Source: Campylobacterales bacterium (GTDB lineage: Bacteria; Campylobacterota; Campylobacteria; Campylobacterales; QNZT01). Taken from it: a DNA stretch of 36,396 bases. Positions 15,304 to 33,207 of the stretch are shown here, one piece after another; position 1 is the first letter of the stretch; the number at the start of each line of letters is the position of its first letter. The stretch is taken from assembly GCA_016744895.1 (NCBI GenBank), contig JADGDK010000016.1, positions 1-36,396 on the forward strand, read 5' to 3'. The notes beneath the pieces are model-generated. The model did no database searches, was not told where the DNA came from, and saw nothing but the letters and a program-made list of their open reading frames with translations. Position numbers and translations under genes: made by a program.

Positions 15304-16638
15304 TTAATACCGACTAGTATTGTCTTTGACATTGATAAGTACCTCTATGTGTTCGACCACTTCTACTAACTCTTTTTGAAGAGACATGACTTCAAAGATA
15401 TCTTTATAGGCAAATGGTGACTCATCGATAGTATTTTTATCTATGGTGCCTACTTTGCCATGCATTGAGGTTTTAAATGCTTCGAGAGTGATCTCTTTTT
15501 TTGCTTTTGATCGACTCATCACCCGTCCAGCACCATGTGAAGAGGAGTTGAGGGATGTTTTACATCCTTTTCCTCTTACGATAAAAGAGCCATCTCTCAT
15601 GTTCGCTGGAATCACACCCATCATGTCCTCCTCAGCATGGGTGGCACCTTTTCTATGTATCCACTCTGCTCTTGTCTCATCAAACTCTGCATGATTGTGA
15701 TTTTTGTTGATAAACCTGCTCTCATCATCAAATACTTTTTTATCTCGTATGTCTATGGATTCATTTAAAATATCAACAATTACTTCGATCATCTTTTTAC
15801 GATTTTCACGTGCAAAGAAAAGTGCAAAGTTTTGATCAGTGATATAGTCGCGTCCAAGCGCACTCTCTACATCTAAACCCCAAATACCCTCTAAGCTATC
15901 AAGGTTGACCTTTTTGTTGAGTTCAAGCTGTTTTTTATGCCTGAATTTTTCAAAAGCCTTGACATATGTCTTTGGATTATCAATTTTGAGTTTTTGGTTT
16001 CTTTGTGCAAACTCCTCTAGATGTTTGTCGATGTTGTTAAGTTTTGGATTTTTCTCTAAGTAGGCTTGGTACATATAGTGCGAAGCGATCTTATGTCCAA
16101 AACCACGACTCCCTGAGTGTATCACAATCCATACCCTATCACTACTGTCATACCCAAGCTCGATAAAATGATTTCCACCACCAAGAGTTCCTAACTGCAT
16201 CAATCCTACAGCGTTTAAAACTGTTTTTGTAAACGCTGTAAGTGGAAGATCAAGCTTTAACGACTGGTGGTTTTTGTGCTTTTTAAAGCCAAGCGGTATC
16301 GTGCTACTGATCTTTTGGTGAATAGACTCAGCTTTGGCTTTGACCTCTTCTTTGGTAAATGCTGTTTGATACGCACACATCCCACACCCGATATCAAATC
16401 CCACAAACTGTGGTACGATGACTCCTTTTGTAGCACATACTCCACCGATAGGCATACTATAGCCTGCATGTGCATCGGGCATCAATGCCCCATAAGTCAC
16501 ATAAGGTTTGCTAAGTACCGCTTCAAACTGATCTTGTGTCGTATCATCTAAAAGATCAGCATAGATCTTATAGGGTGTGTTTGTCTTATCAAATCTCTCA
16601 TGTTCTATCTCTTTAAATCCTAATGTCTTTAAATCCAT
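15304..16638 (-). CDS. rtcB: RtcB-family RNA ligase (long paralogue)
   Basis: RtcB metal/GMP-binding motifs: DIGCGM, GGGNHFIE, HSGSRGFG, SSSHGAGR; 444 aa. Confidence 0.85.
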   Translation of the reverse strand: MDLKTLGFKEIEHERFDKTNTPYKIYADLLDDTTQDQFEAVLSKPYVTYGALMPDAHAGYSMPIGGVCATKGVIVPQFVGFDIGCGMCAYQTAFTKEEVKAKAESIHQKISSTIPLGFKKHKNHQSLKLDLPLTAFTKTVLNAVGLMQLGTLGGGNHFIELGYDSSDRVWIVIHSGSRGFGHKIASHYMYQAYLEKNPKLNNIDKHLEEFAQRNQKLKIDNPKTYVKAFEKFRHKKQLELNKKVNLDSLEGIWGLDVESALGRDYITDQNFALFFARENRKKMIEVIVDILNESIDIRDKKVFDDESRFINKNHNHAEFDETRAEWIHRKGATHAEEDMMGVIPANMRDGSFIVRGKGCKTSLNSSSHGAGRVMSRSKAKKEITLEAFKTSMHGKVGTIDKNTIDESPFAYKDIFEVMSLQKELVEVVEHIEVLINVKDNTSRY

Positions 16639-16703
16639 TCTCTACTCCTTTATATTTTCTTGGTGTCAGTATAAAATAGAATATGGACATATCTTGTCCA
16701 TTT

Positions 16704-17306
16704 TTATTTATTTTTTAGCACTTTAAACTTTTCACCATAAAAGGTTTTAATAGGATCTCCTCGTTTGATCATTTTTACACTGTGCCATCGCTTTTGGATC
16801 TGTGCTTCGATTATCTCTATCTGTTGTAACTTATGCTTTTCCTCTAAGCGTCTACGTGCAATCTGTCTGTTTTGGTGTTGTGACCGTTGATCAAAACTAA
16901 CAGCACTGATACCTAGTGGTGGGTAGAGTGCACGTATCCCACTGTTGGTAGTGTTGACATGTTGTCCTCCTTTTTTGGGACTTTTCATGCTATGGTATAT
17001 GATGCGTGTATCATCAAAGTCAATAGGTTCAAACCCCTCATAACATATGAGTTCAAAGTACCAGTTTTTACGTTTATGTAAGGGACGAAATGGACTTTGA
17101 CTTTGCCAAATCAGCGTACCTTGGAGGTTTTGTAAGGCTTTGTCATGACTGTCTAAAAGTATAGAGTTATAACAGTTTGGTTGTATACCCTTTTCGATCT
17201 TGATTACACAAAAACCATATCTTTTCTCTATCCATTGGTAAAAATACCATATCCCTCTACTTACTTCATCAACTACATTTGCACTACTAATATAAATAAG
17301 CATCAA
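16704..17306 (-). CDS. prfH: peptide chain release factor H (PrfH), GGQ-domain protein
   Basis: GGQHVNTTNSGIR GGQ motif in a ~200-aa protein immediately downstream of, and abutting, an rtcB gene. Confidence 0.8.
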   Translation of the reverse strand: MMLIYISSANVVDEVSRGIWYFYQWIEKRYGFCVIKIEKGIQPNCYNSILLDSHDKALQNLQGTLIWQSQSPFRPLHKRKNWYFELICYEGFEPIDFDDTRIIYHSMKSPKKGGQHVNTTNSGIRALYPPLGISAVSFDQRSQHQNRQIARRRLEEKHKLQQIEIIEAQIQKRWHSVKMIKRGDPIKTFYGEKFKVLKNK

Positions 17307-18347
17307 TTACTCCTTGTAGGTGAGGATCGGTCGAAAAGTTGCTACCACCTCTACTAACTTTGCTTCAATGAGATCACTGATGACAATATCAATATCTTTA
17401 TAGGCTTGTGGGGCTTCTTGGTAGAGAAGACTACTATCATGACAGATGACACGTGCACCGATGGCTGTGCGTAAAAGCTGTTGTTTGTTGACAAGTTTTT
17501 TAAGCTTTGCTTCTACACTGTTTCGCTCCCACTTCCGTCCAGCACCATGTGCTAGTGAGTAGTTTGCTTGTGCAGTGTCAGCCAAAGGTTTGACAAGATA
17601 GCTGAGTGTTCCACGACTACCGGCGATCACTACTAATCCTTTATCTGTGGGCGTGGCTCCTTTTCTATGTAGCCAGAGATTATCTATTTGTGTAATGCTG
17701 TTGTGTCCAGTGTTGCTGACACATGTTAACGAACCCACTAAATTCAATGCTTTGAGTACTCTTTTGACAATCTCTTCCCTACTCTTTTTAGCAAAGTTTT
17801 GTGCTTTATCATGATCGCTCATGTAGGCTTTGGCTAAAGGACTTTTTGCATCAATCCCTTCATTACTTTTATAAGAGGTTGCAACTTTATCAAACACCAT
17901 CTGCCCGAAACTTCTTGAACCACTGTGTACTAAGATATAGAGCATATCTTTATCCATATCACCACTGTTTAACTGATGCAATTCAACAAAGTGGTTGCCC
18001 CTGCCTATCGTGCCTAAGTTATGTTCACGTAGAGGTGTATCTATTTCTACGTCACTGAGACTGTTTAGTTTTAAAAGCTTCTTTTCAAATCGATCTATTT
18101 TGATCTTTTTGGATTTTACAGGGAGTGCAAAAAGACTCATCCCACATCCTATATCACCTCCAATGAGATGAGGATAGATCACGTCTTTGCTCATCACTGC
18201 CATCCCGTTTGGTACAAAACCGACACTCAAGTCTGGTAGTCCTACAACGTTTTGTACACCTCTATAGGTGGTGATCTTTTTTAATGTCTCAACACTTCGC
18301 TGGTCAATCCAGTTTCTCTTTGAAGCGATGATCTTTAGATTGTTCAT
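17307..18347 (-). CDS. rtcB2: RtcB2-type RNA ligase (short paralogue, prfH-linked)
   Basis: DIGCGM, GNHFVE, HSGSRSFG, AHGAGR motifs; 346 aa; stop abuts the prfH start. Confidence 0.85.
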   Translation of the reverse strand: MNNLKIIASKRNWIDQRSVETLKKITTYRGVQNVVGLPDLSVGFVPNGMAVMSKDVIYPHLIGGDIGCGMSLFALPVKSKKIKIDRFEKKLLKLNSLSDVEIDTPLREHNLGTIGRGNHFVELHQLNSGDMDKDMLYILVHSGSRSFGQMVFDKVATSYKSNEGIDAKSPLAKAYMSDHDKAQNFAKKSREEIVKRVLKALNLVGSLTCVSNTGHNSITQIDNLWLHRKGATPTDKGLVVIAGSRGTLSYLVKPLADTAQANYSLAHGAGRKWERNSVEAKLKKLVNKQQLLRTAIGARVICHDSSLLYQEAPQAYKDIDIVISDLIEAKLVEVVATFRPILTYKE

Positions 18348-18500
18348 AAATTCTCCATAATCTATTTTTGTTTTGTTTGTAACCGCTGTTTAATGTTCTA
18401 TTTTGTATCTCTAAAGTCATAAATTCTCCTTTATTATATTTGAAAATATGGTACAATAATTTAGTGACGTATTTTGTCCAGTAAAAAATAGAAGGTGATT

Positions 18501-19415
18501 ATGAGCCAAAAATCAAGCCTATATCGAACCATCGAAATCCTTAAAATGCTCAATAGCGGTAAAAAGTTATGTGTCTCAAATCTTGCGATGGTTTATGAAG
18601 TGAGTAATAGAACGATTAGACGCGATTTTGAGCTTATTCGCGAGAGTTTTGGTGACTTTATGCGTAAAGATGGTGAGTGTTATAAAGCTTATAAAAAGGT
18701 GCTTTTGGAAGATCTTTTGATGGGGTCGGACTTGATGACACTAGCCAATATCATCAATCTTTTTGGACAGGCTTCGATGGAAGAGAGTATCGATGAGCAA
18801 ACCAAAGATCTTGTGAAAAAATCTCTACGTGTCTATGACTTTAAGACCCGACCTTTTGAACATGTAGAAAATAGAGAGATTGTCAAAAAGCTTGAATATG
18901 CGATCAAGTTTAACAAAGAGATTCGCATTGAATATCAGATATCACGTGGAAGTACAAAGAGGTGGTTTCAGCCTTATAAGATACTCTTTATCAATGAAAA
19001 CTTTTATCTTGCGGGTGAAAATATCTCAAAAAAGAATTTTGAGTTTTTGCGAACTGCACTCATCTTAGATATCGAAGAGAGTAAGAAAACATTTTATCAA
19101 AAGACTGATATGATCGACTTTATCCAAACAATCCAAACCCCTTGGGCCTCTTTTGGTAAAGAGGAGATCACTGTAAGACTTAGGATGGATAGTAAGATAC
19201 GAAAGTACTTTTTTATGAAAAAATACCTGCCAAGTCAAAAGGTGATTCAAACTTTTGAAGATGGAGATATCGAGGTAGAGTATGTGGTGAGTAACCTCAG
19301 AGAGGTCGAAGAATTGGTGATCAAATGGCTTCCACATATCAAGATCATTGCACCTAAAAATCTAAAGCGAATGATTAAGAAGGTGATAGGAAAGAAGTTG
19401 GCGGGGTTGAGGTAA
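18501..19415 (+). CDS. HTH + WYL-domain transcriptional regulator
   Basis: N-terminal HTH (LYRTIEILKMLN..VSNLAMVYEVSNRTIRRDFELI); WYL-like domain IRIEYQISRGSTKRWFQPYKILFINENFYLAG; start set at the ATG after a GAAGGTG RBS. Confidence 0.65.
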   Translation: MSQKSSLYRTIEILKMLNSGKKLCVSNLAMVYEVSNRTIRRDFELIRESFGDFMRKDGECYKAYKKVLLEDLLMGSDLMTLANIINLFGQASMEESIDEQTKDLVKKSLRVYDFKTRPFEHVENREIVKKLEYAIKFNKEIRIEYQISRGSTKRWFQPYKILFINENFYLAGENISKKNFEFLRTALILDIEESKKTFYQKTDMIDFIQTIQTPWASFGKEEITVRLRMDSKIRKYFFMKKYLPSQKVIQTFEDGDIEVEYVVSNLREVEELVIKWLPHIKIIAPKNLKRMIKKVIGKKLAGLR

Positions 19416-20495: not shown

Positions 20496-20536
20496 AACTA
20501 TTATTTTTTTAGTTATAATAGTTAAAAATAATAGTT
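20496..20536. promoter_or_regulatory. 13-bp inverted repeat flanking a TATAAT box (candidate operator/promoter of the Fic islet)
   Basis: AACTATTATTTTT-N15-AAAAATAATAGTT with TATAAT in the spacer, 12 nt upstream of the small ORF start. Confidence 0.4.
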
Positions 20537-20547
20537 AGGACTTAAAT

Positions 20548-20802
20548 ATGGCAAAAACCTTTTTTCCAAATGGCAAACAAACAGTATATGTAGATGCTAG
20601 TGATCCACATCCTAAAAACACCCAATATAAAATTTCAATTGGATTAGAATATTGGGGTGAATCAAATCATGAAGTTGTCAAGATACAAATGGTTTACAAT
20701 GGAAAAATTTCTGGGAGGAAAAGCCCTTCTTATCCGATAGATACAGATGATTTTCAGAGAGTGATGACTAAGGTCAATGAACTCATTTCAAATAGAAACT
20801 AG
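20548..20802 (+). CDS. small hypothetical protein (84 aa) upstream of fic
   Basis: ORF whose stop lies 11 nt before the Fic gene start; very AT-rich; no recognisable motif. Confidence 0.4.
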   Translation: MAKTFFPNGKQTVYVDASDPHPKNTQYKISIGLEYWGESNHEVVKIQMVYNGKISGRKSPSYPIDTDDFQRVMTKVNELISNRN

Positions 20803-20813
20803 TAGGAGTTAAC

Positions 20814-22085
20814 ATGACTAAAAAAATCTATCCAACTTCATCTAAAGAATGGATGAAGTATTTAACTGTTGATAAATACTATACTCCAAGAGAAATTGAA
20901 TATAGAAAAAAACTCATTATAGAAAGTGGTTGTGATTATGATGAAGTTTATAAAAAAATACTCAAATATAGAAATAATAAAAAAGAATTAATCAACTTAG
21001 AAGGCGAAAGCTTTACATTTGTTGAAACTCATCTTATGAAAGAAAATGTTGATAGAATCAAGAATTTTTGGAGAAGTAGTTCTTACTCTTTTAAAGAAAG
21101 TTATAAAAAAGAATTGATTTTTGACACCTTGCTTTCTGAAGCATTTCATTCATCATCAATTGAGGGTGCTCATAGTACAAAAAAAAGAACAGAAGAGATC
21201 ATTAAAAAACAATTAACACCTGAAGACAAATCAGAAAGAATGATTATTAATAATTATAGAGCTTTACAATATATTTTTGACCATCAAGAACAAAAACTAG
21301 ATGATGAATTTGTTTTATCTCTACATAAAATGATATCAGAAGATACTCTTGATGAAAAAGAAGATGAAGGAGTTTATAGGAATGATGGTGTTGAAATAAC
21401 TACAGCTACACAAAAAGTTGTTTTTCGACCAACTTCTGATATTAATAAGATGAAAAATATGCTTGATAAGCTTTATTCATTTACTAATTCAGATAATGAT
21501 GATTGTGAAATAGAATATATTGAATCCATATATAAAGTTATCGCATTTCATTTTTTATATGGATATATACATCCTCATTTTGATGGGAATGGAAGAACAT
21601 TAAGAGTTTTATTTACTCACTTACTTGGTCAAAATGGTTTCGATATGTTTTATTATATATCTTTATCTGAAATCATTCACTTAAGTGAGAAGAGAAAAAA
21701 AGAATATGAAAAAGCATTCATCGATGTAGAAGAGAATGAACTAGATTTGACTTATTTTATCTACTATATTCAAGATATTATGATTGATGCATTACAGGTA
21801 CTAGATGATAGAGTATTTCTCTATTTTAGAGAAAGTATTGTATTTGATAAAGTTGAGGAACAGGCTGTTAAATTAACTAAGCGTCAAGAAAATATTCTGA
21901 AATTAATTGCAAGAAATAAAAGAGCATTTGCTATGACTTCTAAAGAAATTTCTGGAAGATTTAAACTATCATCTCAAACAATTTTAAAAGATATAAGATT
22001 TTTAATTGACTTTAAATTATTAAGAAAAAAACAAACAGGTTTAAAAATTTATTACGAATTAGATATTAATGTTACAAAAAGCTAA
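20814..22085 (+). CDS. fic: Fic/Doc family protein, class II (internal inhibitory motif), C-terminal wHTH
   Basis: Fic motif HPHFDGNGRTLR; upstream inhibitory-helix motif SSSIEG ([ST]xxxE[GN]) in the same polypeptide; C-terminal HTH-like region. Confidence 0.85.
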   Translation: MTKKIYPTSSKEWMKYLTVDKYYTPREIEYRKKLIIESGCDYDEVYKKILKYRNNKKELINLEGESFTFVETHLMKENVDRIKNFWRSSSYSFKESYKKELIFDTLLSEAFHSSSIEGAHSTKKRTEEIIKKQLTPEDKSERMIINNYRALQYIFDHQEQKLDDEFVLSLHKMISEDTLDEKEDEGVYRNDGVEITTATQKVVFRPTSDINKMKNMLDKLYSFTNSDNDDCEIEYIESIYKVIAFHFLYGYIHPHFDGNGRTLRVLFTHLLGQNGFDMFYYISLSEIIHLSEKRKKEYEKAFIDVEENELDLTYFIYYIQDIMIDALQVLDDRVFLYFRESIVFDKVEEQAVKLTKRQENILKLIARNKRAFAMTSKEISGRFKLSSQTILKDIRFLIDFKLLRKKQTGLKIYYELDINVTKS

Positions 22086-22301
22086 AAATATAACAAAACT
22101 ACAATAAATTGAAAATAGAAATTCAACCTTATTCCAAAGATGACGAGGTTGATATTCGAAAAATCAAAATTTAACAAAAAACATATTCCACAACGGACAA
22201 AATACGTCCACTAACTACCCTATACTACCACTGTGCAAAGGCAGTTTTGATACTGCCTGCTTGCATACTTACGCTGTGAGTGATGTATGAGACTTGCACA
22301 A

Positions 22302-25609: not shown

Positions 25610-27202
25610 ATGAATAAAAAGGGCTTGATATATATAACTACTACTGCAATATTGCTTGGATTTTTGGGAGGATGTGGAGGAAGCTCCTCTCCTAAAGTCG
25701 TAACCCCTGAGACACCAGAGGTAAACTACAAAAGGTATATGCTCTATACACAAACAGATCCAGCAGACACAGAGTCAAATCTCTATGTATATGATCCTGA
25801 AACCAATGCAACTGCTTTAACAGACAGACTCAAAGATACCAATATGCGAAAAACCAGTGCTATGGTACCGATCTTGGATGCAAGCGGTGAAAATGTAACA
25901 GATATGGTGAGAAAGTACCATATCTATACCAACCATTCACACAAGCTCTATAAGATCCATCTACAGGCATCTGAGCTAGCCTTGGTGACACCTATGCGTA
26001 TCTCGTCCCAACAAGATGAAGAGATCAATGCGCTTGAACTTTTCTTGGATGGTGCTGATATCAACAAGAGTTGGATCAGTTATATAGAGACAGATACGCG
26101 AAAACTCAAAGCAGTACAGTTAGGCTATGGTGATGCTGACGTACCAAAAACACTACCTGATGACTTTGATCCACTTATAGCGATACATGATGCACAAAGT
26201 GGTGCGATCAAAGGGATGTTTTTTGAAGATGACTATAGTTTTGATACCTCAAGACTACAACAGTGTGATACAAATCTGGAAAATTGTAGTGTAAAACTCG
26301 ATGGTTTTCGCAAAATCGAAACGCTATATCTACCCTCTAAAGGTATCCTCTTTTATAGTGAAAATCAAGGCACTGGTGATGTCAGTATCCATCTTTATCA
26401 GTCTGAAACAGATAGCTTAGAACTGTTACAGACGATACTGGCAGAAGATCTAGGGAAAACAACACTAGAGAAGATGACCTATAAAAACGGCGCACTCTTT
26501 TTGGTGTTTGAAAATAACATTGTTGCTGTGGGCGTGACACCCTATATCTCAATCTACCGTTATAATTTTGCTACCAAAGCTTTGATAAGTGCCAAAGTCA
26601 ATAATCCAGAAAAAAATCTTTTTCAAATGAGAGTGAGTGATGATAAAGTACTGTTAAACGTTCAAAATGAAGGAAAAACATTTGCGGATAATGACTTTAT
26701 CATAATGAAATCACTCAACCAATCTGACCTCACCGATGAAAAGATAGTCACTATGATAAGTGCTTCAAGTATCGTGACAACTTCGGGAGACTGGATCTAT
26801 CACTTTGGTATGACAAGCACTACTACCAACCTTGGCTTTTTACATGATGATGGAAGTGGAGAAACAATCATGAGTGATCTACATCTAGTAGGAGGAAAAT
26901 ATACGACACTTTTTCATAGAGATGCTTTTGCCAGTGATCCGTCGATGGATACGCTTTACTATGTGACTCATGAGGACAAGAAATTTTATGCTATGCAAGC
27001 ATCAGACCCTACACAGGTAGTCTCTTTTGGTGAAGTACCTGATTTTTCAATATTTCAAGGGTTTGGTATGGGTAGATATAGCCTCTATGAGCTTATGAAT
27101 GCTAGCAATATAGGTCATATCTATCTGATGGATACCCAAGCTGCAAATAAACTGGTACGTATCACAAACACCGAGGGGGTAGTGCATCGTTTGTGGCAGT
27201 AA
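25610..27202 (+). CDS. lipoprotein, function unknown
   Basis: Lipobox LLGFLGGC after an N-terminal hydrophobic region; AAAGGAG RBS before the ATG at 25610; ~530 aa. Confidence 0.7.
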   Translation: MNKKGLIYITTTAILLGFLGGCGGSSSPKVVTPETPEVNYKRYMLYTQTDPADTESNLYVYDPETNATALTDRLKDTNMRKTSAMVPILDASGENVTDMVRKYHIYTNHSHKLYKIHLQASELALVTPMRISSQQDEEINALELFLDGADINKSWISYIETDTRKLKAVQLGYGDADVPKTLPDDFDPLIAIHDAQSGAIKGMFFEDDYSFDTSRLQQCDTNLENCSVKLDGFRKIETLYLPSKGILFYSENQGTGDVSIHLYQSETDSLELLQTILAEDLGKTTLEKMTYKNGALFLVFENNIVAVGVTPYISIYRYNFATKALISAKVNNPEKNLFQMRVSDDKVLLNVQNEGKTFADNDFIIMKSLNQSDLTDEKIVTMISASSIVTTSGDWIYHFGMTSTTTNLGFLHDDGSGETIMSDLHLVGGKYTTLFHRDAFASDPSMDTLYYVTHEDKKFYAMQASDPTQVVSFGEVPDFSIFQGFGMGRYSLYELMNASNIGHIYLMDTQAANKLVRITNTEGVVHRLWQ

Positions 27203-27275
27203 GATAGTGTACATTTATAAGTCTAAGTTGTAATTATCGCTATAATATGATGATTATACTAAAACGAGGGCTAAC

Positions 27276-28013
27276 ATGGAGTGGGATATAGGTATATTTT
27301 TATGGGTAAATTTTATCATCATCGCTAGTTCTGTGTTACAGATGGCGACGGGTGTGAGTGTGGGGATGATCATCGTACCATTTTTAGCGATGATCAGCTA
27401 TACGCTTGTACCTGTGCCCATCGTATTAGCTTCACTTGCCCTTACTATCATGATGGCGTACAAGGGTAAAGAGCATATCGATGTGGAAAATATTTACCAT
27501 GTTAGCTTTGGAATGTTGGCAGGGATATTTGTCGCTATATTTTTGTTTTCTCAAATTCACTTTGAGTATTTGGGCTTGGTGTTTGGGATGCTGATCTTGT
27601 TCTCCGTGTTTATTAGTATCAAAATTAAATCATTTAGGTTAAGTAAAAAGATGAACTTTGCAGGTGGTTTGATCGCTGGAACGATGGGCGCGATGGCGGC
27701 TGTAGGTGGTCAAGTACTAGCCCTACTGTTTCAAAACCATCCTCTTAAATCGATCAAGTCTACATTAGCCGCCTTGTATACGTTATTTTCACTAGTAATG
27801 CTTTTTATCTTTTATCTCTTTGGACAGTTTAGCAATGATCAAATGGTATCAGGACTCTACATGATGCCAGGGTTTATCATAGGGTATTTGATCGCACCAA
27901 AGTTTACAAAGTACTTTGATCCAAAATACTCAAAAGTAGCGGTGTTGGGTATGGCGATCGTGGGGTCTTTGTTGTTGATTTATCGGACTTTGGTGGAGAT
28001 GGGATTTGTTTAG
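27276..28013 (+). CDS. TSUP (TauE/SafE) family membrane transporter
   Basis: ~245 aa, 7-8 TM helices, duplicated Gly-rich segments (GGLIAGTMGAMAAVGG) typical of DUF81/TauE proteins. Confidence 0.55.
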   Translation: MEWDIGIFLWVNFIIIASSVLQMATGVSVGMIIVPFLAMISYTLVPVPIVLASLALTIMMAYKGKEHIDVENIYHVSFGMLAGIFVAIFLFSQIHFEYLGLVFGMLILFSVFISIKIKSFRLSKKMNFAGGLIAGTMGAMAAVGGQVLALLFQNHPLKSIKSTLAALYTLFSLVMLFIFYLFGQFSNDQMVSGLYMMPGFIIGYLIAPKFTKYFDPKYSKVAVLGMAIVGSLLLIYRTLVEMGFV

Positions 28014-28205
28014 AGTAGATATTAATATAATGTTTATTGCATAAAGATATATAATCACAAGTATTAAAAAGAATGAATTATAACAATAAATTCAAACTCT
28101 TTACTTCATCACTATACTTTTTAAAAAAAAATCACCCAAAATAATGGAAACAAAGAAAAAGTTATTATTTGATAATATACAGAGAATTACTAAAGGAACT
28201 ATACT

Positions 28206-29264
28206 ATGACTAATCACTTTATTAAAAACTTGAATCTAACTAATTTTAAATGTTTTAAAAAGCTTGAAGTAGATGGCTTTCAAAGAGTAAATTTAATAAG
28301 TGGTAAAAATAATATTGGTAAAACTTCTTTAATGGAGGCAATTGAATTATCAGTTTCTTCTGAGACTTCTCATGATTTAGCTTACAAAATATATGAAATG
28401 ATGAGAAGAAGACAATCAATTATTAGATTAAATAGAGAAAAATATTTTGAGTTAGATTTTATATATGATGATAGCTCTAATGTCACAATCATTATGAATA
28501 ATAAAGAAGTTAGGATTGAATATTTAGAATATATTAAAAAGACACCAGAAGAAGAAAATCTATTTGAGGAAGAAGACTTAACTGTCTCTTATTATCAACC
28601 ATCACTAAAATTAAGTATAAATGATGATAGTAGAATTTTTACAATCGACAGGTTTATAAATAGACCCAGTATGATAAGACGAGAGCGATATAGTGAAAAT
28701 AAAGCAAAAGTAAATTTTATAACTTCTACAACAACAGATGAACGAGATATAGCAATTTTTTATGGTAAATTAATAGATTTAAATAAAGAGGAATTTTTAA
28801 ATAATTCTTTAAAAATATTTGATGAAAATATTCTTGCTTTAAAACAAAAAGCAACTGAAAGAGATATTGTTTTAAAAATCCAATTAAAGAATAGAGAATT
28901 ACCAGTCCTTCTATCTTCTTTAGGTGAAGGAATTAATAGATATATAGCAATAATATGTGCAATATGGGCAAGTCAAGATAGTTTTCTATTCATTGATGAA
29001 ATTGAAAATGGCATACATTACACAAATTACGAGAAACTATGGAAAATAATCTTTGAAACATCTAAAATGGCAAATTGCCAAATATTTATAACAACACATT
29101 CTAAAGAATGCATTGAATCTTTTAATCATGTAAATAAAAATAATGCAGGTACTTATTTTGAATTCTATAGAAATCAAAAAACAAATTTAATTACTGCAAA
29201 ACAAAGAGATACTAATCAATTGAATTATGCACTAACGCATAATGGAGAAATTAGAGGTGAGTAG
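28206..29264 (+). CDS. AAA_21/ABC-type ATPase of a two-gene OLD/AbiL/PARIS-like module
   Basis: N-terminal Walker A GKNNIGKTS within an SMC/OLD-like head (FIKNLNLTNFKCF); C-terminal Walker B LFIDEIENGIH and H-loop FITTHS; very AT-rich gene. Confidence 0.7.
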   Translation: MTNHFIKNLNLTNFKCFKKLEVDGFQRVNLISGKNNIGKTSLMEAIELSVSSETSHDLAYKIYEMMRRRQSIIRLNREKYFELDFIYDDSSNVTIIMNNKEVRIEYLEYIKKTPEEENLFEEEDLTVSYYQPSLKLSINDDSRIFTIDRFINRPSMIRRERYSENKAKVNFITSTTTDERDIAIFYGKLIDLNKEEFLNNSLKIFDENILALKQKATERDIVLKIQLKNRELPVLLSSLGEGINRYIAIICAIWASQDSFLFIDEIENGIHYTNYEKLWKIIFETSKMANCQIFITTHSKECIESFNHVNKNNAGTYFEFYRNQKTNLITAKQRDTNQLNYALTHNGEIRGE

Positions 29265-29910
29265 TTCAATAGTTGTTGAAAGTGAAAATGATAAATATTT
29301 TATAGAAGCACTTATCTGTAAATTAAACTTGGATATTAAAGTAGATAATCCAATTTGTTCCATAAATAATTATGAATGTTTGGGTGGCTATACAAATTTA
29401 ATCAATAAGCTTAAGGGAATACGATTTGATAAATTTACTAAACTTGGCATCATATTAGATGCTGATGATGTAGGAGTAGAAGAGAGAATTAAATTTATTA
29501 ATGATTCTTTAAAAACTATTTGTTCAGATGTAGAATTAACTAACATAAATGAATTAAAGAGAAGTGAAGAGCTAGATATTGACATAGCTTGTTATATTAT
29601 GAATATTGATGGTAAAGGTGAACTTGAAACTGTTTTAAAAACTATAAAATCAGAAGAGTCAATTTATGCAGATTGTTTATCTGAATGGCGTAATTGTTTA
29701 AAAAGTACAGGTTGCGAAATAAGTGATAAAGAATTTGACAAATTTTGGATTAACAACTATTTAAAATTTGATACTTGTAAAAGCAGTAAGCATAGAGGAA
29801 ATAAAAGTAAATATTGTTCTAATGAAATGGCTATAAAAAAAGATATATGGAACTTTGAACATTCATCTCTCATTGATTTAAAAGACTTTTTAACTTTATT
29901 TAAAATTTAA
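29242..29910 (+). CDS. RloB/AbiLii-like TOPRIM-fold protein (partner of the upstream ATPase)
   Basis: N-terminus IVVESENDKYFIEAL resembles the RloB/OLD TOPRIM glutamate motif (I.VEGE.TE..YF); downstream acidic DxD-like GIILDADDVG; overlaps the ATPase gene by 23 nt. Confidence 0.55.
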   Translation: MEKLEVSSSIVVESENDKYFIEALICKLNLDIKVDNPICSINNYECLGGYTNLINKLKGIRFDKFTKLGIILDADDVGVEERIKFINDSLKTICSDVELTNINELKRSEELDIDIACYIMNIDGKGELETVLKTIKSEESIYADCLSEWRNCLKSTGCEISDKEFDKFWINNYLKFDTCKSSKHRGNKSKYCSNEMAIKKDIWNFEHSSLIDLKDFLTLFKI

Positions 29911-29999
29911 TTGTTGATATTAAAAAATACTATATAGTGAGTAATAAATCTTTATTGAAGATAACATTATTTCTAAATAATAGAGTGTAACTTACCTAT

Positions 30000-30506
30000 A
30001 TGGAGCTTAAAATGGATAATATCAACAACACCAAACTCATACTCCTCTGCGGAAAAATGGGTGCAGGTAAAACAACAACGTCAAAAGCTATCGCCGAAGA
30101 GTCTAATGCTGTATTGATCTCTGAAGATGAATGGCTCTCTTCACATTATCCAGCACAAATCAATACCTTTGATGACTATATAAAGTATGCACAACAGATT
30201 AAACCATTTGTAAAGGCTCATGTGCAAAACATACTTACTGCAGGTGTAACAGTGGTGATGGATTTTCCAGCAAATACACAGCGGCAAAGAAAATGGTTAC
30301 TAAGTATTTGCCAAGAGATTGGTAGTGATCATGAACTGATTTACTTAAACATCAGCGATGAAAGATGTTTATCACAAATCTCTAAGCGTCGAAAAGAGCA
30401 GCCTGAACGATCACAATTTGATACACAAGAGATGTTTTATGAGGTGAGTAAATATTTTGAAGCACCTTCTAAAGAGGAAGGGTTACATATCATTGAAAGA
30501 TCGTAG
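30000..30506 (+). CDS. small P-loop kinase (AAA_33-like nucleotide/antibiotic kinase fold)
   Basis: Walker A CGKMGAGKTT at the N-terminus followed by a Walker-B-like DEWL; 168 aa. Confidence 0.55.
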   Translation: MELKMDNINNTKLILLCGKMGAGKTTTSKAIAEESNAVLISEDEWLSSHYPAQINTFDDYIKYAQQIKPFVKAHVQNILTAGVTVVMDFPANTQRQRKWLLSICQEIGSDHELIYLNISDERCLSQISKRRKEQPERSQFDTQEMFYEVSKYFEAPSKEEGLHIIERS

Positions 30507-30569
30507 GTTTAAATAGTAGTAGCCCTTTTAAAGTATTTGTAAACTCCACATCCCTATAATCTCTGCAAG

Positions 30570-30606
30570 TGTGATTTCTATCTAAATTCCTTAGTTTTGG
30601 TATAAT
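30570..30606 (+). promoter_or_regulatory. extended -10 promoter (TGgTATAAT) upstream of the 30639 gene
   Basis: TGGTATAAT at 30598-30606, 32 nt before the RBS/ATG. Confidence 0.35.
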
Positions 30607-30638
30607 ATATTATAGATTAATAGAATGAGGTAGTTATC

Positions 30639-31286
30639 ATGATGCAAGAAATCGTATTAGGTGTAGTGATTTTACTTTTTGGTATCGGTTTTATTTATGC
30701 GAAAAAGCATAAACAAAGAAGATATTTTATCCAGATGTATGACTTTCCTATAACTGTGATAGAACGTTTTAAAGAGAAGTCATACCATTTTACAGATGAA
30801 CAAGTTCGAGATATTTTTGAGGGCTTAAAAGATTATTTTTACATCTGTAACAAAGCAAATAATAGAATGGTAGCTATGCCTTCAAAAGTTGTGGATGATG
30901 CTTGGCATGAGTTTTTACTCTTTACACAAGAGTATGAAGCATTTTCCAAAAAAGCATTTGGACGGTTGTTTCACCATATCCCTAGCGTTTCGATTGCTGA
31001 TAGCAGTAAGATGGATGAAGCGTTAAAAACGGCATGGATGCTCTCATGTGAAAAAGAGGATATTTTATATAATGTACCAGACAAGTTACCACGTCTGTTT
31101 TTACTGGATAAACTGTTAGAAATCAAAGGTGGCAATATTTATGTCATTAATTGTCATAGTAAAAAAGAAGATGAAATCTGTGTAAAAGACCTTTTTGACC
31201 CTAAACGAAGATCTGATAAAAATACTTCAAGCTCTTCATGTGGTGGGGGAAACGTCTCTTGTAGCAATGGTTGTAGCGGATCATAA
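30639..31286 (+). CDS. membrane-anchored hypothetical protein with C-terminal Ser/Gly/Cys-rich tail
   Basis: N-terminal TM helix (IVLGVVILLFGIGFIYA); conserved-looking DDAWHEFLLFTQEY block; C-terminus SSSSCGGGNVSCSNGCSGS. Confidence 0.5.
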   Translation: MMQEIVLGVVILLFGIGFIYAKKHKQRRYFIQMYDFPITVIERFKEKSYHFTDEQVRDIFEGLKDYFYICNKANNRMVAMPSKVVDDAWHEFLLFTQEYEAFSKKAFGRLFHHIPSVSIADSSKMDEALKTAWMLSCEKEDILYNVPDKLPRLFLLDKLLEIKGGNIYVINCHSKKEDEICVKDLFDPKRRSDKNTSSSSCGGGNVSCSNGCSGS

Positions 31287-31955: not shown

Positions 31956-32519
31956 GTGAAAGAGATCTATCTAATCCGTCATGGCAAAGTAGATATTGAC
32001 AATAGTAAACGTATCTATGCACATGAGATAAAACAGTGGGTAGATGCCTACGACACTGCACCTTTAGATCCAAATAGTATCCCAACTCATAATTTGCATA
32101 CATTGATAACACATGTAGACCTTGTGATAAGCAGTCAGAAAAGAAGGTCGATTGATTCCATAAAACTACTTGGTCGAGTGACTTATGAAAGCCATTCCTC
32201 TTTTGATGAAGCAAAAATCCCAGACTCCTCAATACCATTTGTCAAGCTAAAACCAAAATCATGGCTTAGCCTTCTTCGTATACTTCAAATGATGGGATTG
32301 GGAAGAACAAATAGTACATTGATCGCTTCAAAAAAAGAAGCAGAAAAAGCAGTTGATTTTCTGATAACATGTTTAGCAAGACACAATACTATCGCGGTAG
32401 TAGGACATGGTGGAATGAATTGGCTTATCAGTAAAAGGCTTCAAAAATTAGGATGGAACATAGAAGGAAAACCTATGCATCACAATTGGGGTGTCACTAA
32501 ACTTAGGATCAAAGAATAA
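31956..32519 (+). CDS. histidine phosphatase superfamily (SixA/PGM-like) protein
   Basis: N-terminal RHG catalytic motif (IYLIRHGKV) and a C-terminal GHGG region; GTG start. Confidence 0.55.
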   Translation: MKEIYLIRHGKVDIDNSKRIYAHEIKQWVDAYDTAPLDPNSIPTHNLHTLITHVDLVISSQKRRSIDSIKLLGRVTYESHSSFDEAKIPDSSIPFVKLKPKSWLSLLRILQMMGLGRTNSTLIASKKEAEKAVDFLITCLARHNTIAVVGHGGMNWLISKRLQKLGWNIEGKPMHHNWGVTKLRIKE

Positions 32520-33207
32520 ATATGATCATGGGAGAACAACTTTGGAAAATTTAAACTGTATCTACTGTAATCACAACAAACTTTACCATTTACAAAATGG
32601 ATATCTTAAATGCAGTATTTGTAAAAAAAAGTTTAGTCCAAAGAAAATAGAGAAAAAACAAAATATTATCAACTGTTTCATCGATGATCTCACAATGCGA
32701 CAATGTGCTCAAACGTTAGAACTCTCTTATGTGAGTGTTTCTAAATATTATAAAGAGTTTCGTATAAAAATCGCTACTTATTTGGAAGATGAATACCTTA
32801 AAAAAGAGGATTCGGTAAGTGAATATGATGAATATCTCTACCTTGAAAAAGCCAAAAAACATGATAAAAAGTATATCTTTGATTCTCAAAATTTTCTTAC
32901 TTTTGATTATGAAGATAAAATCTACAATATACTTATGCCACCACTTAATCGTTATAAAAATCAATTTATCCACGATAATTTAGAAGAAGTTTATCATCGT
33001 GAGTTTTCCAAGTTTTTATTGATACACAAAGTCGCAAAACTACAACAACATGAAAACAACATCACAAAGTTTTGGCGCTATTTTGAAGATTTTATTCTTA
33101 AATACAAAGGTATAAATAAAGAGAATTTTTTTTACTATCTCAAAGAAGCAGAGTTTAAATTTAACTATACAAAACAAATACAGCGAGAAATTTTAACACA
33201 ATTGTAA
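32491..33207 (+). pseudogene. IS1595-family transposase-like remnant (Zn-ribbon + HTH + C-terminal tail, DDE core apparently missing)
   Basis: N-terminal CxxC-x17-CxxC zinc ribbon (CIYCNHNK...CSICKKKF) followed by an HTH; C-terminal ...FFYYLKEAEFKFNYTKQ resembles the IS1595 YL.E..FRFN.R tail. Only 238 aa with no recognisable DDE triad and no terminal inverted repeats seen. Confidence 0.4.

Follow-up and report, generated by a model that had tools for sequence, protein, structure and literature searches.

Organization of the locus

The window, meaning the whole stretch of 36,396 nucleotides (nt) analysed here, is contig JADGDK010000016.1 (positions 1 to 36,396, forward strand) of a Campylobacterales bacterium, assembly GCA_016744895.1. 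Within it we studied two neighbouring, co-oriented genes, A and B, which encode an ATPase of the ABC type and a TOPRIM protein and which form a self-contained, horizontally acquired two-gene operon in a block at about 28075..29925. A first-pass annotation, made from the sequence alone, had singled the pair out as a candidate antiphage module in an AT-rich islet. The hydrogenase-maturation, RtcB and two-component genes around the cassette identify the contig as chromosomal. A housekeeping ABC-F protein encoded in the window was 81% identical to that of a metagenome-assembled genome (MAG) labelled 'Epsilonproteobacteria bacterium', 60-63% to those of Arcobacteraceae and 52-53% to those of Sulfurimonas, and the host therefore belongs to a sparsely sampled Campylobacterota lineage.

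The guanine-plus-cytosine (GC) content was 0.226-0.256 over 28001-30000 as compared to 0.37-0.39 in the adjacent 500-nt intervals and a typical value of about 0.35 in the window, and the cassette as a whole had a GC of 0.25 versus about 0.36 in its flanks (range 0.35-0.38). The AT-rich block that had been proposed to span 28014 to about 30520 is real but ends near 30000, where the next gene has a GC of 0.37. Two metagenome contigs carried a copy about 92% identical to 28075..29925 in flanks unrelated to those of the window (blastn and border alignments), which delimits the mobile block at approximately these positions. The left part of the locus, 25762..28677, comprising the TauE gene and the first half of gene A, was recovered at 99.9% identity and in the same arrangement from another contig; this contig and the 92%-identical copies come from independent samples. 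Among homologues, the cassette was AT-rich relative to its host in all 55 loci with enough flank, with a mean gap of 8.4 points. Low GC, patchy spread across phyla and the 92%-identical copy in different flanks thus bear out the horizontal acquisition suggested at first pass.

A 168-aa AAA_33/zeta-toxin-like P-loop kinase gene (Pfam; 30000-30506) lies directly 3' of the cassette. It was considered as a third component and rejected, as its GC is host-like (0.37), it falls outside the block common to the two metagenome contigs and it is not kept beside homologues of the pair. The promoter of gene A presumably lies in the intergenic region upstream of it, and a candidate ribosome-binding site (RBS), AAAGGA, was located 8 nt 5' of the ATG. 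Promoter-like sites in the cassette region were no more numerous than in shuffled sequence, and the sole terminator-like hairpin sits within gene A, none being recognisable above chance. At the cassette borders, the search for terminal repeats or transposon ends returned short AT-rich chance matches only, and no RNA family was matched by the Rfam scan of 27000-31000.

Genes A and B are translationally coupled whichever start of B is used. The coordinates and coupling of the two open reading frames (ORFs) stood as first annotated, and so did the 23-nt overlap when B is read from the ATG at 29242; this ATG is in frame in the window but is not conserved across loci, and the conserved overlap is one of 8 nt, with B starting at the GTG at 29257, an overlap that gene callers also report for homologues. 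The junction consensus across the compared loci was (A/C)GN GGT GA(G/A) TA(A/G), and the core GGTGA(G/A)TA(A/G) was found in about 80 of 87 loci. Within 29247-29264 the arginine-glycine-glutamate tail of A is dual-coded with the GTG of B, and a purine-rich Shine-Dalgarno-like sequence lies just upstream. In 45 homologues of A, R350 and G351 were invariant and E352 was at least 90% conserved, a protein-level conservation that may reflect constraint at the nucleotide level. As B starts from a GTG within the last codons of A, both proteins are probably produced together.

Gene A encodes an ABC ATPase related to AbiLi

The families nearest to A by sequence are AbiLi and PDC-M38A, both matched over the full length of the protein. 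Among the PADLOC models, for which we give model E-values and not calls by PADLOC's own thresholds, AbiLi (PDLC02336) matched at 6.3e-56 (residues 5-350 on positions 1-340 of 340) and PDC-M38A (PDLC04611) at 4.4e-55 (residues 6-350 on positions 2-383 of 383), while the AriA, NsnB, mad3, GajA and PtuA models matched far more weakly. The Pfam families found were AAA_15, AAA_21 and SMC_N. A match to a housekeeping family such as RecF or RecN had been set beforehand as the result that would count against the first-pass annotation; the RecF model TIGR00611 reached 35 bits against a cutoff of 172, and the other NCBIfam matches were likewise all far under their cutoffs.

The Walker A, Walker B and H-loop motifs quoted at first pass in A, and GIILDADD in B, were all present (Table 1). 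Conservation in A was assessed on an alignment of the same 45 homologues, of 51-71% identity. The core motifs had block identities of 0.7-0.96, whereas residues 71-170 formed an insert with block identities of 0.19-0.51 (0.61 at 81-90). The RRQ motif preceding this insert is a candidate Q-loop by its position, and the insert itself is a candidate sensor surface.

The AlphaFold model of A (pLDDT, the predicted local distance difference test score, 85.5) is an ABC head devoid of a long coiled coil and bearing a short, mostly beta insert, with low pLDDT at residues 108-132 and 150-168. Its structural matches were led by the SMC3 head (18.7), PtuA (18.0) and Rad50 (17.8), followed by the retron Eco7 and Ec83 ATPases (17.4-17.7), AriA (16.4), the Eco8 OLD protein (16.2), GajA (14.8), Thermus OLD (13.4) and RecF (13.3). 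Judged by this model A is a minimal ABC ATPase of the SMC/Rad50-head type, which many defence systems employ, in agreement with the SMC/OLD-head-like character first assigned to it.

Gene B encodes a DUF3226 protein with an OLD-type TOPRIM fold

Gene B encodes an OLD-type TOPRIM-plus-helical-domain protein of the DUF3226 family (residues are numbered from the ATG at 29242). DUF3226 (PF11536) was its sole Pfam match, at 7.6e-23 and 81.8 bits against a gathering cutoff of 27, with residues 9-218 aligned on positions 3-204 of 208. Neither RloB (PF13707; none at E<=0.1 or <=1) nor DUF4435 or DUF4276 was matched by B in Pfam, and the three were equally absent when 51 homologues were scanned singly. 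In these scans DUF3226 was matched by 51 of 51, Toprim (PF01751) by 31 (best 1.7e-5) and OLD-like_TOPRIM by 9. Among the PADLOC models only those of PDC-M38B matched the B of the window (PDLC04623, 5.2e-10, residues 3-133 on positions 4-147 of 219). They also matched 47 of 48 diverse B relatives (best 1.5e-17), a few of which gave marginal matches to the mad4, AriB, AbiLii and HEC-01B models.

The structure predicted for B from the 51-sequence alignment (pLDDT 89.9; predicted template modelling score, pTM, 0.86) has the OLD-type TOPRIM-plus-helical fold, and its closest functionally characterised matches were the DNA-cutting OLD catalytic regions. Further matches were T7 primase (7.9), retron Ec67 (7.3), GajA (7.3), a small Toprim protein (6.9) and AriB (6.3), and with Foldseek retron Eco2/Ec67 was the only near-significant match. 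The checks proposed at first pass, a Pfam search of A and a structure prediction of B, thus gave an AAA_21 match and a TOPRIM fold. The TOPRIM similarity of B, whose absence was to have spoken against the annotation, is present both in the model and in the E...DxD signature, and it is of the OLD type as claimed; the likeness to RloB and AbiLii was not upheld, the family being DUF3226. The pair had also been described as small and divergent enough to leave its family membership open. None of the Pfam families named at that stage for B fits it, but the pair falls beside the catalogued candidate PDC-M38.

Conservation of the predicted active site was assessed in the close set of 51 homologues and in a diverse alignment of 48 sequences with 26-50% identity. 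E13, D17, D73 and D75 were the only strictly invariant residues of the diverse alignment, in which D177 was kept in 47 of 48 sequences. The two-metal site of Burkholderia OLD (BpOLD) is formed by E400, E404, D455, D457, T506 and E508, plus K562 (PMC6755086), and the order and spacing of the conserved residues of B reproduce it. By order, E13 and D17 would correspond to E400 and E404, E127 and E129 are candidate metal-B ligands equivalent to T506 and E508 by order and spacing, and K167 is a candidate equivalent of the catalytic K562. From this conservation and the predicted fold, B is very probably a metal-dependent nuclease.

A search of Protein Data Bank (PDB) sequences with B alone returned nothing, and a profile of the close family returned only chance matches to CAP proteins. 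The diverse profile gave three matches at E<10 among all PDB sequences, to AriB (0.16 and 0.18) and to PH0156 (0.27), all of them marginal. In the alignment to AriB, E13 of B aligns with E26, mutation of which renders AriB non-toxic (PMC11464382). PH0156 is in turn the top HHpred match of a lactococcal AriB (PMC11381338), which together with the matches of the diverse profile relates DUF3226 and DUF4435 as TOPRIM families. Apart from the acidic residues, the helical domain of B has four cysteines, C145, C152, C179 and C192, all kept in 51 of 51 close homologues. In the distant ones C145 and C152 were at least 90% conserved, and C179 and C192 were kept or lost together (22 sequences with all four and 17 with the first two only, n=48). 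This pattern suggests a paired site, structural or metal-binding, of a sort not known from OLD or AriB.

Table 1. Coordinates of the A/B cassette and of the motifs of its two products
Feature	Position	Strand	Remarks
Two-gene mobile cassette	28075..29925 (~1.85 kb)	not assigned	~92% identity block common to metagenome contigs L004 and L005
Upstream AT-rich intergenic region	28014..28205	+	presumed promoter and RBS of gene A
Gene A ORF	28206..29264	+	352 aa
Walker A / P-loop GKNNIGKT	28302..28325	+	residues 33-40; G33, N35, N36, G38, K39, T40 invariant
Q-loop candidate RRQ (R68, R69, Q70)	28407..28415	+	R69, Q70 invariant
Variable insert	28416..28715	+	residues 71-170; least conserved, indel-rich part of A
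ABC signature-like LLSSLGEG	28908..28931	+	residues 235-242; L235, L236, S237, G240, G242 invariant
Walker B FLFIDE and D-loop IENG	28983..29012	+	Walker B residues 260-265; D264, E265, E267, N268, G269 invariant
H-loop TTHS	29091..29102	+	residues 296-299; H298, S299 invariant
Gene B, longest ORF	29242..29910	+	222 aa, ATG start at 29242
Coupling junction AGA GGT GAG TAG	29253..29264	+	C-terminal R-G-E-stop of A enclosing the GTG (29257) of B
Gene B from conserved GTG start	29257..29910	+	217 aa, DUF3226 TOPRIM and helical domain, predicted nuclease effector
IVVESENDKY of B			residues 10-19
TOPRIM E13 and D17 (VESEND)	29278..29292	+	invariant in 51 close and 48 distant homologues
GIILDADD of B			residues 69-76
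TOPRIM DxD, D73-A-D75 in GIILDADD	29458..29466	+	D73 in 51/51 and 48/48; D75 in 48/51 and 48/48
E127-L-E129 (GELE)	29620..29628	+	start of helical domain; E129 is E/D in 44/48 distant homologues
Cysteines C145, C152, C179, C192 of B	29674..29817	+	helical domain; candidate metal-binding/structural site
K167 (KxW motif)	29740..29742	+	helical domain; K in 47/48 distant homologues

Pairing, distribution and genomic neighbourhood

The association of the two genes was maintained throughout the homologous loci. Of the 84 loci with a B relative, 82 have an A relative whose end falls exactly at the start of B, and the remaining two have no upstream sequence. No conserved third gene emerged on clustering of 605 neighbouring ORFs, the largest cluster being generic GGDEF-type signalling proteins. 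A profile search with B in 1.84 billion representatives retrieved 474 clusters, 259 of them at E<=1e-10; no fusion of A and B was seen in the best 150 of the 474, whose lengths were 92-312 aa, full-length members being about 200-260 aa. One locus (L087, 15559-17081) encodes a second, divergent pair of an AAA_21 ATPase (325 aa) and a weak-DUF3226 protein (183 aa) about 5 kb from the first, and hence the pairing of ATPase and DUF3226 reaches beyond the subfamily of gene B.

When one genome per species was scanned, the pair was present in 223 of 185,579 genomes from at least six phyla, with 42-57% identity to B. The carriers included Campylobacterota, Brachyspira, Thiotrichales, Beggiatoa, Methylococcales and many Cyanobacteria, besides Cloacimonadota, cable bacteria, a Saprospiraceae MAG and an assembly labelled Caldilinea; sulfur-oxidising and methanotrophic Gammaproteobacteria are among them. 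The distribution is patchy and the pattern of similarity among carriers is phylogenetically incongruent. The patchiness across phyla and the 92%-identical copy in other flanks bear indirectly on the third result that was to count against the first-pass annotation, conservation of the pair as core genome at this position.

The only recurrent defence-type neighbour was an Eco57I/MmeI-type N6-adenine methyltransferase 5' of the pair in four loci (L016, L018, L021 and L023) from Brachyspira and one member of the Arcobacteraceae. It was encoded 100-3200 nt upstream, in three of the four directly upstream within 650 nt. In Aliarcobacter, the copy adjoins relaxase, TrbL, type IV secretion system and Rep3 genes. 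The only hits among phage and plasmid records were two entries (L090, NZ_CP104448.1; L091, CAKLQH020000003.1), one labelled 'Acinetobacter phage MD-2021a' (240 kb) and the other a 4.09-Mb 'plasmid' of A. baumannii. They carry a 34%-identical pair, located downstream of glyQS and close to ast genes, and look like Acinetobacter chromosome under a wrong label.

Functional interpretation

We consider it probable, by analogy with characterised relatives, that A and B constitute a putative abortive-infection-type module acting against phages or other mobile elements. The precedents behind this reading are AbiL and PARIS, validated abortive-infection systems of ATPase plus TOPRIM design. In PARIS, a hexamer of AriA keeps AriB inactive until ATP-dependent recognition of a phage protein releases it, and the freed AriB dimerises and cleaves tRNA-Lys (PMC11464382). 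OLD enzymes cut DNA with their TOPRIM-plus-helical region, which uses two-metal catalysis (PMC6755086). On the analogy of PARIS and of OLD/Gabija, A would bind B and hold it inactive, the variable insert of A (residues 71-170) would sense an infection cue, and a trigger of phage origin, in combination with the binding or hydrolysis of ATP, would free or activate B. E13, D17, D73 and D75, with E129 and K167, would then form the two-metal nuclease site of B, which may cut DNA like OLD or tRNA like AriB, so that phage replication would be halted at a cost to host growth. Complex formation, trigger, substrate and the anti-phage role itself are all drawn from these relatives and are proposed here as predictions.

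Several observations weigh against this interpretation. In about 50 loci, the genes closest to the pair are mostly of a housekeeping kind, with few restriction-modification (RM) methyltransferases or AriA-like genes, and association with defence islands is therefore weak support. Genuine phage and plasmid records practically lack the pair, and a search of IMG/VR did not find it. No relative with an empty site was found either that would show variable presence at this exact locus; with the TauE neighbour as query, one genome per species gave no relative, and metagenomes gave two only, with 60% identity and no synteny. B matches PDC-M38B weakly and only in part (5e-10, about 60% coverage), the correspondence with the OLD residues is one of order and spacing and not of superposition, and the PDC systems, PDC-M38 among them, are explicitly candidates. 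The related ATPase plus TOPRIM candidate HEC-01 gave no defence in its sole reported assay, and no paper mentioning DUF3226 or PDC-M38 turned up in the literature searched. As genomic association is weak, the case for defence is built on homology, on architecture and on the way the pair has spread horizontally.

The same features could be those of a selfish addiction module resembling a toxin-antitoxin system, in which B would be a nuclease toxin and A its ATPase antitoxin, persisting through post-segregational or linkage effects and having no dedicated anti-phage role. Tight coupling of two genes, low GC and patchy spread, and the position of the cassette alone between housekeeping genes and outside defence islands are all expected of such a module, and PARIS itself acts as a toxin-antitoxin pair. 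However, the validated relatives of the same architecture, AbiL and PARIS, defend against phages, toxin-antitoxin behaviour and defence are not mutually exclusive, and plasmids, on which addiction modules are common, hardly ever carry the pair. We regard a purely selfish role as unlikely.

A defence role directed at plasmids or other mobile DNA, in the manner of Wadjet and Lamassu or of the DNA-end and nick surveillance of OLD/Gabija, would have A recognise a DNA structure and B cut DNA. The resemblance of A to SMC and Rad50 heads, that of B to DNA-cutting OLD catalytic regions, and the copy adjoining a conjugative element agree with it. Yet A has neither coiled-coil arms nor a kleisin- or Mre11-like partner, and its size of 352 aa and its short insert set it apart from the DNA-entrapping SMC machines. 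We hold this explanation to be improbable. A housekeeping role in DNA repair or recombination, with A as a RecF/RecN/SbcCD-like ATPase joined to a nuclease, is very improbable given the subthreshold RecF and other NCBIfam scores, the occurrence in so few species genomes with incongruent similarity, the AT-richness in every locus compared and the near-identical copy in other flanks. That the cassette is what is left of a transferred element, no longer functional and in decay, as its atypical GC and its want of a promoter and terminator recognisable above chance might suggest, is barely credible for two ORFs that are intact and full length against their homologues, retain every catalytic and nucleotide-binding residue and the coupling junction, and recur at 99.9% (left part) and 92% identity in independent samples.

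Returning to the abortive-infection reading, a bolder version of it can be framed, in which DUF3226 would be a distinct, unrecognised family of defence nucleases and the cassette a minimal PARIS-like system, with a new kind of trigger sensed by the variable insert of its 352-aa ATPase, which lacks coiled coils, and a 217-aa TOPRIM effector whose cysteine-ligated metal site and helical domain would direct it to a substrate other than the DNA of OLD and the tRNA-Lys of AriB. We hold this version to be doubtful. If true, it would give DUF3226, and with it the archaeal PH0156 structure, a function and would validate the PDC-M38 candidate. ATPase plus TOPRIM pairs make up a large and diverse part of bacterial immunity, most of which is unexplored. 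In itself, the cassette is a further predicted member of a class already known, and a tidy candidate for giving DUF3226 a function. PARIS is the only ATPase plus TOPRIM pair understood mechanistically, and its authors ask whether AbiL, RloAB and related pairs act alike. The cassette is among the smallest versions and is well delimited. It could serve as a compact test case for the gating of a TOPRIM nuclease by an ABC ATPase lacking a coiled coil, with K39 and E265 of A and E13, D73 and D75 of B as clear mutational targets. It also illustrates that modules of this sort can spread singly, as islets surrounded by housekeeping genes, where searches for defence islands would miss them.

Other features of the window

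Apart from the cassette, the window holds further genes of note. At 15304-19415, two RtcB RNA-ligase paralogues (15304..16638 and 17307..18347, minus strand) flank a gene for a 200-aa RF-1-domain, PrfH-like protein (16704..17306), next to a divergently transcribed regulator gene of the HTH-WYL-WCX type (18495..19415; HTH, helix-turn-helix), and the group resembles an RtcB-PrfH module for RNA/ribosome repair that is controlled by the WYL regulator. A second AT-rich islet (20501-22100), with a GC (0.26-0.27) as low as that of the cassette, encodes a 423-aa Fic/DOC-domain protein that has an HTH at its C-terminus (20814..22085); the gene may be a further horizontal acquisition of toxin-like or defence-like nature. 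In a third stretch of low GC (0.27-0.29) lies a 238-aa ORF (32491-33207) that has no Pfam match and whose N-terminus carries a zinc-ribbon-like CxxC...CxxC arrangement. Near the left end of the window, a 220-aa LexA/CI-like protein combining a CI-repressor HTH with an S24 peptidase is encoded at 607-1269.

Comparison with known systems

The closest catalogued entity is PDC-M38, a PADLOC candidate and one of 145 proposed by guilt-by-embedding (Payne et al., bioRxiv 10.1101/2024.01.29.577857). It likewise consists of two genes, an ABC ATPase followed by a TOPRIM-like protein. The weakness of the B match places the DUF3226 subfamily of B outside the sequences from which the PDC-M38 models were built. 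Moreover, PDC-M38 was defined inside RM, BREX or DISARM loci, whereas the copy in the window and most of its relatives are solitary among housekeeping genes.

With AbiL of Lactococcus (AbiLi and AbiLii), which confers abortive infection, the cassette has in common the AbiLi-type ATPase and the gene order, ATPase and then TOPRIM/OLD-like protein. Unlike in AbiL and RloAB, B is neither AbiLii nor RloB; the PADLOC AbiLii models gave no match at E<=0.1 for the B of the window and were touched by only 2 of the 48 B relatives (8.5e-4). RloAB of Campylobacter is embedded in type I RM loci and the cassette is not. In PARIS, AriA, whose chain in the PDB counts 464 residues, carries a coiled-coil insert through which it assembles into hexamers and binds the trigger, whereas the insert of A is short, and AriB is a 35 kDa DUF4435 protein (PF14491), a family that B does not match. 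The location differs as well, as PARIS often resides on phage satellites and plasmids and the A/B pair does not. By its sequence, then, B is of a family other than the second proteins of AbiL and PARIS.

The OLD nucleases (Class 1/2, GajA and the retron Eco8 effector) have the ATPase and TOPRIM parts in one polypeptide, while A and B are split in all loci, although the predicted fold of B is the OLD catalytic one of TOPRIM plus helical domain. PH0156 of Pyrococcus horikoshii (PDB 2P62), the DUF3226 protein with a solved structure, carries no assigned function; its similarity to B is marginal and the bacterial subfamily adds the conserved cysteines. The OLD/AbiL/PARIS-like architecture recognised at first pass, a split ABC ATPase with a TOPRIM-like partner, is nevertheless that of the cassette. 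With its ABC motifs, its TOPRIM fold with Glu...DxD and its adjacent, co-oriented and co-inherited genes, the A/B pair can be counted among the ABC ATPase plus TOPRIM modules, a class that also comprises AbiL, PARIS, RloAB, HEC-01 and PDC-M38.

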